61,595 nucleotides of DNA, filler included, from Candidatus Omnitrophota bacterium (GCA_043812495.1; 5 parts of 5 records of this genome joined end to end with filler, not necessarily neighbours in it); one strand, 5' to 3'; positions 24,001-27,000 are shown, counted from the first letter of the whole stretch. Numbers are program-made.

Positions 24001-27000
24001 GAAAAGACCGGCGTGTACCGCGGTCATTATCATGTTTTGTTGGGCGCGATATCGCCCTCCGACGGGCGAGGCCCGGATGATATCAAGATCGAAAAGCTCT
24101 TGGGGCGAATCAGGAATCAAAATATCCGTGAAATCGTGATTGCGACTGACCCCGATACGGAAGGTGAGACCACGGCGCTTTTTATTTCCAGGGAACTTAA
24201 GAAAACAGGCGTTAAGATCACGCGTATCGGCCTCGGGCTTCCTATGGGCGGATCTTTGGAGTATGCGGACCTTTCGACCTTGAGTATGTCCTTGAGCGCG
24301 CGCCGGGAGATCACCAAGGAAACCGGACATTAAGTTTGAAAAGGTTGACTTTTAGAAATATTTAAGTATAATTCAATTTTTACAACGTTCTTTAATAAAC
24401 GTTTTCCCACATCGATAACCTTGGTTTTTAATTAGGGGAAATCGATGAGGGAATTTTCAGATTATAAAATAAGAGAAAATTCCCCTGTTAAATGAGCCCG
24501 TCGCTTATGAAATAAAATGACATAAGTGACATGGGCGAATTTACCTCGATTAATGAGGCCATGGTTTATGGAATAAGATGAACATAAACCATGAGGCTGA
24601 ATTAATCCCGAGGCCTCAGGCCGAGGGACCCGTTAGGGCGAGAGGGCTCAGCCGGTATTTACTATTGGCTGAGCAACTAGAATCGTTCTTTTAGTACTTA
24701 TTCCCCTGTAGCTCAGTTGGTAGAGCGCCCGCTATAAAACGTGGCGGGTCCGCCAAGATTTTTGGCGGAGGTGGCTAATGTATAATGTATAATGTATATG
24801 TTCTTCAAAGTAGTAAAAACAAGAAAAGATATGTAGGTTTTACAAGCAAAACTGTAGCTGAGCGATTAAAGGAACACAATTCTGGATCAAACAGTTTTAC
24901 GCGTCAAAATAAACCTTTTGAAGTTATTTATTCTGAGGAATACGATAATAAAAGTTTCGCCCAAAAGCGTGAGCGATTTCTAAAATCTGGTCACGGACGA
25001 AATTTTCTTAAAAGAAAACTAGCAGAACATTTATTCCCCTGTAGCTCAGTTGGTAGAGCGGGTGGCTGTGAGCAGGGTATGAAGGGAGGTGGCAACTGGC
25101 AAAGCGCGATACAAGGACTTATGAAGATCGCCGCGAATATTTAATCTCTGCCGTTCGAAAGCGAAGAAAAAAAGTTCGTCAGAACGCAGTTAAATATAAA
25201 GGTGGTCGTTGCCAAATATGTGGCTATCATCGTTGTATCGACGCTCTCGAGTTTCATCATAATGACTCTTCGGGAAAAGACTTTAGCATATCAAGCAAAG
25301 GATATACTCGAAGCTGGGTTAAAGTCAAAGAAGAGTTAGAAAAATGTATTCTCGTTTGCGCCAATTGCCATCGTGAAATTCATGCTCAAAACGCAGCTTC
25401 TACGGGAAACCGTGGTTGAAAAAGCGGGAGGATTCAGGGAAGCCCAAACGTTAAGTCGAGGGTAATCCTGAGCCGAGCCCTGTAATTTAGGGAAGGTGCA
25501 GAGACTATGCACCCGCTACCTAAATCCAAGATTCATTGGATAAGGTAAAGAGATAGTCCAAGTCCGAAAGTAATTTCGGGTCACTTGTAACCACTAGGTC
25601 CGAGGTTCGAGTCCTCGCGGGGGAGCCAGTTAGACGTCTGACAGCGGATTTCTTCGCTGTCAGATTCGCATAGATCAAGTAGCCCTGTGTCGGGTTGACG
25701 CCCATACAGGGCTATTTGTATTTTGGTGGGGCTTAGGGTAGCTTTGTGCAGGACGAGCCTTACCATGTCCTTCTGCCGGTAAGGCTTTATCTTATCGAAA
25801 AGGTCGGAGAATCGGCTCAAAGCCAGCGTTACAAGCTCCCGGCTTATCGATTCCCGCTCGATCTCCTTGATCATGGCCTCAAGCGAGGCTATGCCGGTTT
25901 CTATCTCTTTCCGGCGTTGGCCAAGCTCGGCAAGTTTCTCTTTGAGGAATATACTGCTGTCATCCGTGGCCATGGCAGTCCATTTATTCATTATCCCATC
26001 GGCAAAAGCCTTTACCTCGGCCAGCTCTTTTTGAAGATGAGTTTTCCTGTGTTTAAGCTGTGGCAGTTCCTTCATTAGCTTTTCATTGGTATGCTCTATT
26101 AGCTTTTCCATTAGGCCGGAATCGGATGAGAGATATTTTATACGTTTGATTATAATACGTTCAATCTCATCAGCCGGGAGTTTGAACCGGCAATCTTTAT
26201 TTTTGCATACGTAGAAAAAGTATTTATTACCACGTCTGCCTGTCCCGCAGGTTCCTTCCATCTGCCCGCCGCATTTACCGCACCACAAAAGTCCGCCATT
26301 TAAAATATAAGTGTGTTTGATTGTTTTCGTGCCGTTGTGCTTGGTTTTGGTGTTTTGCTTGATGAGCTTCTGGACCTTGTAGAAGGTCTCCTCATCGATT
26401 AAAGGCTCCCAGACCGCCTTGACGGTCCTGTAGCGCTCTTTTTCCTGTAGCTTTGTCTGATCCTCTAATCTTTTCTTTTTGTTGATCTCTTTAAGTCCGA
26501 TATAGGCGCAATTGACGAGTAGTTGTTTTATGGATGACCGGCCGAATTTCTCGGGAGTGCGGAATTTGCCTCTTCGTGAGGTATATCCTTTGGTGCGATA
26601 GCCATTATCATTAAGGGCCCGGGCTGTTCCCATAAGCGAACCGCATTCAAGGTATTTCTTGAAGGCGAATCGCACAAGGGCCTTTTCTTTTTCGTTTACG
26701 ATTGGGTAACCTTTACGGTTAGGATCAAGGTCAAAGCCTAACAAATGCCCGCCATTCCACAGGCCTCGTTCTGCCCGGGCAAGTGTAGCTTCTTTATTGC
26801 GCTCGGAGGTCTGTGTCCGCTCGAATTCGGCCAAAGCCATCATTATAGTGATGAAAAGTTTTCCTTGAGAAGACGTGGTGTCGTAGTTTTGTTTTAAACA
26901 TACGAATTCGACATCGTATTTGGTGAGGATCTCGAAGAAGTTTAAGAAATCTCTTACCGAGCGGCTTATCCGGTCAAGTGCGGTACATATAACGGTATTT

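Follow-up and report, generated by a model that had tools for sequence, protein, structure and literature searches.

How asparagine is decoded in a genome of Candidatus Omnitrophota bacterium (GCA_043812495.1, here G000: 1.94 Mb, 66 contigs, 90.5% complete) is the question raised by this locus. When ARAGORN was run without its intron option, no tRNA-Asn was found in the window (the whole stretch of 61,595 nucleotides that was analysed, filler included; positions refer to it unless a contig is named). The locus lies on contig C51, which ends at position 27507 of the window. With introns allowed, ARAGORN called tRNA-Asn(gtt) i(36,518) at C51:8274-8867, the sole Asn gene among the 42 tRNAs of the assembly. 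Two 'Asn(att)' calls on contig C15, obtained by ARAGORN with a relaxed score, were rejected as not tRNA-like.

A first-pass annotation had described a 518-nt group I intron between nucleotides 35 and 36 of tRNA-Asn(GUU), and both the ARAGORN call and a match to the Rfam model RF00028 (80.6 bits) confirmed it. The same annotation had taken this gene for the only tRNA-Asn of the cell. That held within the assembly, from which Ile-GAU, Ala-UGC, Pro-UGG, Glu-UUC and Gln-CUG tRNA genes are also missing (ARAGORN), so that 'only' is to be read as only within an assembly of the completeness given above.

The split tRNA-Asn gene

The gene lies on the plus strand. Its 5' exon (25035-25069, tRNA nucleotides 1-35, the last base being the splice-site U) and its 3' exon (25588-25631, CCA encoded) were delimited from the sequence, the ARAGORN call and an intronless relative; the intron (25070-25587, 518 nt) was delimited from RF00028, ARAGORN and covariation. 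Joining the exons restores the GUU anticodon, and the joined exons are identical at 75 of 76 bases to the intronless tRNA-Asn of a genome of the same family (G010). Four DNA sequencing runs returned one 234-nt identical piece and contigs from other organisms, in which 25069 is joined either to 25588 (intronless alleles) or to 25393 (ORF-less introns); these junctions fit both boundaries.

A sigma-70-type promoter consensus (TTGACT-16-TATAAT, 11 of 12 matches) at 24345-24372, plus strand, is the probable tRNA promoter, and motifs resembling it were found upstream of tRNA-Asn in relatives. The 325-nt leader from this promoter to the cassette described below (24372-24697) contains several hairpins, short echoes of the tRNA start and a weak Rfam match, below threshold, at 24548-24609.

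Ribozyme core

RF00028 was matched at 25371-25580 over model positions 1-253 (gathering score 50), and this was its sole match in the genome. The internal guide sequence (25393-25398, plus strand) is predicted to form P1 with 25064-25069, with pair probabilities of 0.95-0.99 for five pairs and 0.67 for the sixth; folding of the precursor gave P1 as 25064-25070 with 25392-25398. The pairing of a guide with the 5' exon had been recognised in the first-pass annotation, and the guide itself starts one base later than was given there. At the 5' splice site U25069 stands opposite G25393 (U.G, pair probability 0.99), and the terminal base of the intron is G25587.

The P2-P9 region with the terminal G (25400-25587, plus strand) was assessed by covariation: over a structure of 42 pairs that was set by hand from the same 20 introns of the order, a favourable bias in its test, 97.0% of cells were paired and 22 of the 42 pairs had changed on both sides. 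None of 500 shuffles reached the observed values, and slid controls were 29-44% paired against 97%. Helices P3-P9 with the G-binding site in P7 are present. In the window copy, P6a and P9.0 hold compensatory pairs that are private to it, and three bases that follow P3 and hardly vary elsewhere (25429-25431) are changed. All testable features of group I membership were found.

The P7-P3 junction is short (4 nt) in the window copy; P7.1/P7.2 are absent and the intron is therefore not of IA type, while the long form with P7.1/P7.2 occurs in 54 of the 64 HNH-bearing relatives. Introns of subgroup IC3 have a compact core, a GAAA-capped P2, a short P5 and no P7 extensions. Features of this type are visible in the window copy, and IC3 is the likely subgroup.

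The HNH gene in loop L1

The HNH reading frame that had been placed in the P1 loop was found at 25072-25416 (115 codons, stop-free). No ATG, GTG or TTG lies near its start, and the frame had been said to lack a start codon; this overlooks a CTG at 25096 behind GGAGG (25085-25089), in the place where relatives have TTG, ATG or GTG. With this CTG as the probable start, the gene (25096-25419, plus strand, 107 aa) lies in loop L1 and overlaps the guide sequence and P2.

The assignment of the gene was based on PHROG 2255 (E 4e-28), on the zinc-binding motif CxxC...HH...CxNCH and on alignment; PF01844 was matched at 17.4 bits, under its cut-off of 21.4, and NCBIfam held no family for the protein. 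The closest relatives are Omnitrophota records, and a PDB sequence search found no characterised member of the family (best E 0.0096). The structure model had a pLDDT of 84. Its top structural rows were HNH proteins with weak scores (Z 4.0-4.7), among them Cap5 (Z 4.7, rmsd 3.4, 63 aligned), ZRANB3 and EndoVII, and Foldseek returned no match at E below 0.1.

The frame had also been suspected of decay. In an alignment of 36 rows that includes the window copy, all 21 invariant columns, the zinc and catalytic motif residues among them, are kept; the ribosome-binding site is intact, and the frame has no frameshift or internal stop. Compared with 10 relatives, dN was 0.14-0.22 and dS 1.4 to saturated; dN far below dS indicates purifying selection. 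The kept residues and this selection speak against decay, and the CTG may still be an early lesion: the gene appears conserved, and its CTG is either a start of lowered strength or the first damage.

A predicted long-range helix between the leader and the gene end

The HNH leader (25075-25100, plus strand), which holds the GGAGG and the probable CTG start, is the 5' strand of a predicted long-range helix, delimited from predicted pairing and the starts of relatives. The 3' strand (25360-25387, plus strand, from folding) is formed by the codons that specify the C-terminal ANCH...HA motif. When the window precursor was folded, the pair probability was 0.92-1.0 at 20 of 26 bases; the CTG breaks one pair.

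Each leader was then scanned along its own gene (190 loci, of which 3 were dropped; 154 kept after near-copy removal; L240 misfiled as free). Among the 84 cellular intron copies, 53 had their best partner at the gene end, versus 5 of 62 free-standing copies (cellular 0/11, viral 5/51), with about 7% expected by chance; among 2 viral intron copies and 6 unclear copies there was none. By this test, 31 of the 84 cellular intron copies are without a gene-end helix. For 22 close copies, which were picked after a first look and are kin rather than independent, own leader pairs were more stable than swapped ones (-25.8 vs -21.9 kcal/mol, p 5e-5). An alignment of close copies showed matching changes at synonymous sites of the helix. 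RNAalifold recovered just 4 of its pairs from a gap-free alignment, in which the leader register shifts between copies.

Distribution and presumed mobility

Across 168 genomes of the order (incomplete ones included; kin among them are not independent), an intact tRNA-Asn was found in 62, an intron-type 3' exon in 52, both in 3 and neither in 57. Thus the insertion is common in the order, as the first-pass annotation had claimed, and 49 of the 52 intron-bearing genomes show no intact tRNA-Asn. Its count of RF00028 matches in the order (named Zapsychrales there), 68 of 151 genomes, was reproduced. The prevalence of the Asn site among the intron loci also held, with 24 of 30 fetched loci being Asn, 5 fMet and 1 uncalled. 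Group I introns in tRNA-fMet were seen in the same order at L025, L033, L037, L043 and L044; that of L037 is 634 nt long and may hold an ORF.

The HNH gene is present in 31 of the 168 genomes. Within the 52 intron-bearing ones it lies inside the intron in 24 (two copies broken) and is free-standing upstream of an ORF-less intron in 3, while no match came from the other 25. Broken copies were seen in G109 and G035. Alleles that are empty, ORF-less or ORF-bearing are mixed within genera g37, g57, g53 and g18, as a homing cycle predicts. Several ORF-less tRNA-Asn introns (L018, L020, L021, L272) have about 60-110 extra bases in loop L1; those of L272 look like the last HNH codons, a deletion remnant.

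Across species genomes, relatives of the HNH protein were found in 331 stretches; exon joining gives tRNA-Asn(GUU) in 65 of the best 80. These 65 loci belong to Omnitrophota, Nitrospirota, Patescibacteria, Planctomycetota, Bacteroidota and others; the remaining 15 were mostly cut off, missed by the search patterns, or free-standing beside the same tRNA. The HNH family was also seen free-standing just up- or downstream of an intron-split tRNA-Asn (L239, L244, L245, L069, L087, L103, L108, L114), a layout that collaborative homing would predict.

In viral contigs, 264 stretches matched the HNH protein. The best 80 formed 30 clusters, and 2 of the 80 lie inside introns. A tRNA was found within 1.5 kb in 24 of these clusters and tRNA-Asn(GUU) in 16, the next type reaching 9; the 16 of 24 is a raw count that does not allow for the background frequency of tRNA-Asn in phages. 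Among cultured phages, relatives are free-standing in the tRNA clusters of Bacteroides phage DAC15 and Klebsiella phage Muenster, in the latter directly after tRNA-Asn. This association points to tRNA-Asn as the target of the HNH protein and to the intron gene as a captured free-standing gene.

Repeated capture of the gene by introns was considered and does not follow from a quick HNH tree of 64 rows (without L053 and L061): the label of short or long core requires 4 changes there, of which well-supported branches force only 1. Three loci that are Nitrospirota-labelled or unlabelled (L049, L056, L065) have an HNH protein 74-80% identical to that of the window, yet a long P7.1/P7.2 core. This pattern suggests exchange of the HNH gene between intron types, for which the tree gives no support.

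Neighbouring elements

A cassette precedes the tRNA. Its left arm (24698-24727, plus strand) copies the 5' end of tRNA-Asn over 30 nt (tRNA nucleotides 1-26 and the 4 bases before them) and is a 100% direct repeat of 25031-25060. The duplicate is broken by a GC-rich double hairpin (24728-24768, plus strand), after which tRNA nucleotides 27-33 resume; similar hairpins occur beside GIY-YIG genes in the same genome and in relatives. The small GIY-YIG nuclease gene follows (24785-25144, plus strand, 119 aa as read, domain aa 1-72, PF01541 59.9 bits). As had been noted before, it reads into the 5' exon; its frame has no stop before the tRNA and runs on into the intron. GIY-YIG relatives beside intronless tRNA-Asn genes have their stop ahead of the tRNA, at 81-82 aa, and the idea that the gene normally ends at an exon-junction stop was dropped for this reason. 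If translated, the frame could disturb the folding of P1.

The same cassette lies ahead of intronless tRNA-Asn genes in G128, G058, G103 and, broken, in G029, the only other genomes of the 168 to match it in full up to the tRNA-Asn exon; it also precedes other tRNAs in several phyla. Because it occurs with intronless genes, the cassette is not part of the intron system. Of the 15 small GIY-YIG genes of G000, 11 lie within 600 nt of various tRNA or tmRNA genes, versus 2.5% at random. Several have hairpin-broken partial tRNA copies, e.g. a near-complete tRNA-Asp copy on C66, and other small GIY-YIG genes of the window lie at 19597-20085 and near 16323-16547. At L017 (C62:23482 to the contig end), a tRNA-Pro-like 5' half is followed by a double hairpin like that of the window and a GIY-YIG gene running off the contig; the tRNA-Pro(UGG) that the assembly lacks may follow shortly past the end of C62.

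Downstream, a large serine recombinase gene (25581-27290, minus strand; Resolvase, Recombinase and Zn-ribbon domains) belongs to an adjacent, separate integrated element. Its last codons are antisense to the tRNA-Asn 3' exon. The other end of this element lies beyond the contig end, and neither a second attachment site nor a second copy of the tRNA 3' end was found in the assembly. The same sequence stands just behind the tRNA at L031.

Comparison with known systems

Introns of tRNA-Asn and tRNA-Asp at 35/36, with self-splicing in vitro, have reportedly been described by Nakagawa and colleagues. The title of their 2025 preprint (Nakagawa et al., cited in PMC12641178) announces a new site in Patescibacteria. 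Set against that title, the present case differs in its Omnitrophota-like host and in that about half of the order's introns carry the HNH gene; the window core is without P7.1/P7.2, which the Patescibacteria copies in this set have. Williams 2020 (bioRxiv 10.1101/2020.01.27.920355) expanded the classes of introns splitting tRNA genes from four classical ones to 21, many in unnamed phyla, and stated that introns above 400 bp hold ORFs. Like those classes, the window intron is a group I intron in the anticodon loop with U at -1 and a terminal G, 35/36 being position 4 in that work. It also has an HNH gene; none is named in that text. 'Asn' is absent from the running text of Williams 2020, which gives its class table as an image; the available parts of PMC11835236 and PMC13168695 make no mention of Asn. 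Given the 21 classes and the 2025 preprint, the earlier statement that group I introns are not known in tRNA-Asn is doubtful, and the claim of a first such intron probably brings nothing new.

Among characterised introns, the nearest in architecture is the tRNA-fMet intron of Synechocystis PCC 6803 (I-Ssp6803I; PMC3073962), which likewise lies in an anticodon and bears in P1 an endonuclease ORF that overlaps P1/P2. That intron combines tRNA-fMet with a PD-(D/E)XK enzyme, whereas the present one combines tRNA-Asn with an HNH protein. PMC3073962 also describes non-AUG starts and sequestered ribosome-binding sites for intron ORFs. As in the T4 I-TevI/MobE hairpins treated there, a sequestered ribosome-binding site would protect splicing; those hairpins are local, whereas here the partner lies some 270 nt downstream, in the final codons of the gene itself. 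The free-standing HNH relatives in phage tRNA clusters resemble the phage tRNA-cluster homing endonuclease T4 SegB, which is itself a GIY-YIG and not an HNH enzyme (PMC2330249, in part), and collaborative homing with a free-standing endonuclease has been described (PMC3984707, in part). For the upstream cassette only, the likeness is to Ssn (SsnA, cd10448), a single-domain GIY-YIG protein of about 80-95 aa with flanking hairpins. The likeness was seen in PF01541 and the hairpins; the word 'tRNA' is absent from the main text of PMC11893778. No description of the tRNA-Asn HNH family, of its silencing by a helix or of a partner strand formed by the gene's own end was found in the literature searched, the text of Nakagawa et al. 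2025 lying outside that search.

Proposed mechanism and alternatives

With good confidence, the locus is read as a mobile group I intron within the anticodon of tRNA-Asn, with an HNH gene in L1 and a helix between the leader and the gene end, and with the GIY-YIG cassette and the recombinase element as independent elements that use the same tRNA; splicing, homing and the role of the helix are its presumed parts. By sequence and covariation, the pre-tRNA can form P1, with U.G paired at the 5' splice site, and the whole P3-P9 core with the G-binding site, and it has the terminal G. Two transesterifications, as in established group I chemistry, would then join nucleotide 35 to nucleotide 36 and restore GUU. 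In all likelihood the intron splices itself and a working tRNA-Asn depends on this, and asparagine decoding would depend on splicing if there is no second tRNA-Asn gene. The zinc-binding HNH protein would cut or nick intronless tRNA-Asn near the anticodon and thereby start homing, which explains the mixture of allele states within genera. The helix would close the 320-nt insertion so that P1 can form, and would keep ribosomes off the folded intron; together with the weak start, it would allow the nuclease to be made only rarely.

The presumed mobility is where a different account has most to offer. This element may splice while its HNH gene is silent, decay is beginning and movement has ceased, a state that we consider rather unlikely. 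The CTG, which also breaks one helix pair, may mean that this copy is silenced; its end branch is long (0.27 against a tree median of 0.11), and broken copies and introns with no HNH match occur among the relatives, as counted above. These points are set against the intact ribosome-binding site and frame, the kept invariant residues and the low dN. Initiation at CUG also occurs at a low level in bacteria. That the split gene is instead a non-splicing relic, with the working tRNA-Asn in unassembled DNA, seems very improbable. The incompleteness of the assembly with its five other missing tRNA types, the three deviating bases after P3 and the three relatives with both intact and split forms would fit a relic, but the exons are perfect (one difference from the intronless relative), the conserved structure is upheld at all 42 tested core pairs, at some by private compensatory changes, and nearly all intron-bearing genomes show no intact copy.

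A system in which the GIY-YIG protein is the homing partner of the intron, by collaborative homing, is scarcely credible to us: the gene borders on the 5' exon, its frame continues into the intron, and exon joining would put a stop in that frame exactly at the junction, but the cassette stands ahead of the intronless tRNA-Asn genes of three genomes (and, broken, of a fourth), just these four matched it in full, and the small GIY-YIG genes of G000 gather at tRNA and tmRNA genes of various kinds.

Beyond the mobile intron preferred here, a wider proposal for the HNH family is offered tentatively, as one that we think slightly more apt to fail than to hold. The family would be a tRNA-Asn-directed homing endonuclease, free in phage tRNA clusters, that was captured in loop L1 by 35/36 introns of two core types and goes on driving their spread in Omnitrophota and other phyla. 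It would be silenced by a helix of the ribosome-binding site and start with active-site codons, which closes P1 and ties nuclease output to ribozyme folding.

Significance

The element is real, well preserved and of a common kind that has probably already been catalogued. To that kind are added an Omnitrophota-type core, a high share of HNH-bearing alleles, the long-range helix and free-standing relatives in phage tRNA clusters. Should the 107-aa HNH protein prove site-specific, it would rank as a homing nuclease of very small size and would add another endonuclease type to those of tRNA introns. With the long-range helix comes a testable model of how a gene can sit in P1 without blocking splicing. 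For the order as a whole, standard tRNA annotation misses tRNA-Asn in 52 of the 111 genomes that show the gene, and the empty, ORF-less and ORF-bearing alleles found side by side make a test set for the homing cycle on bacterial chromosomes.
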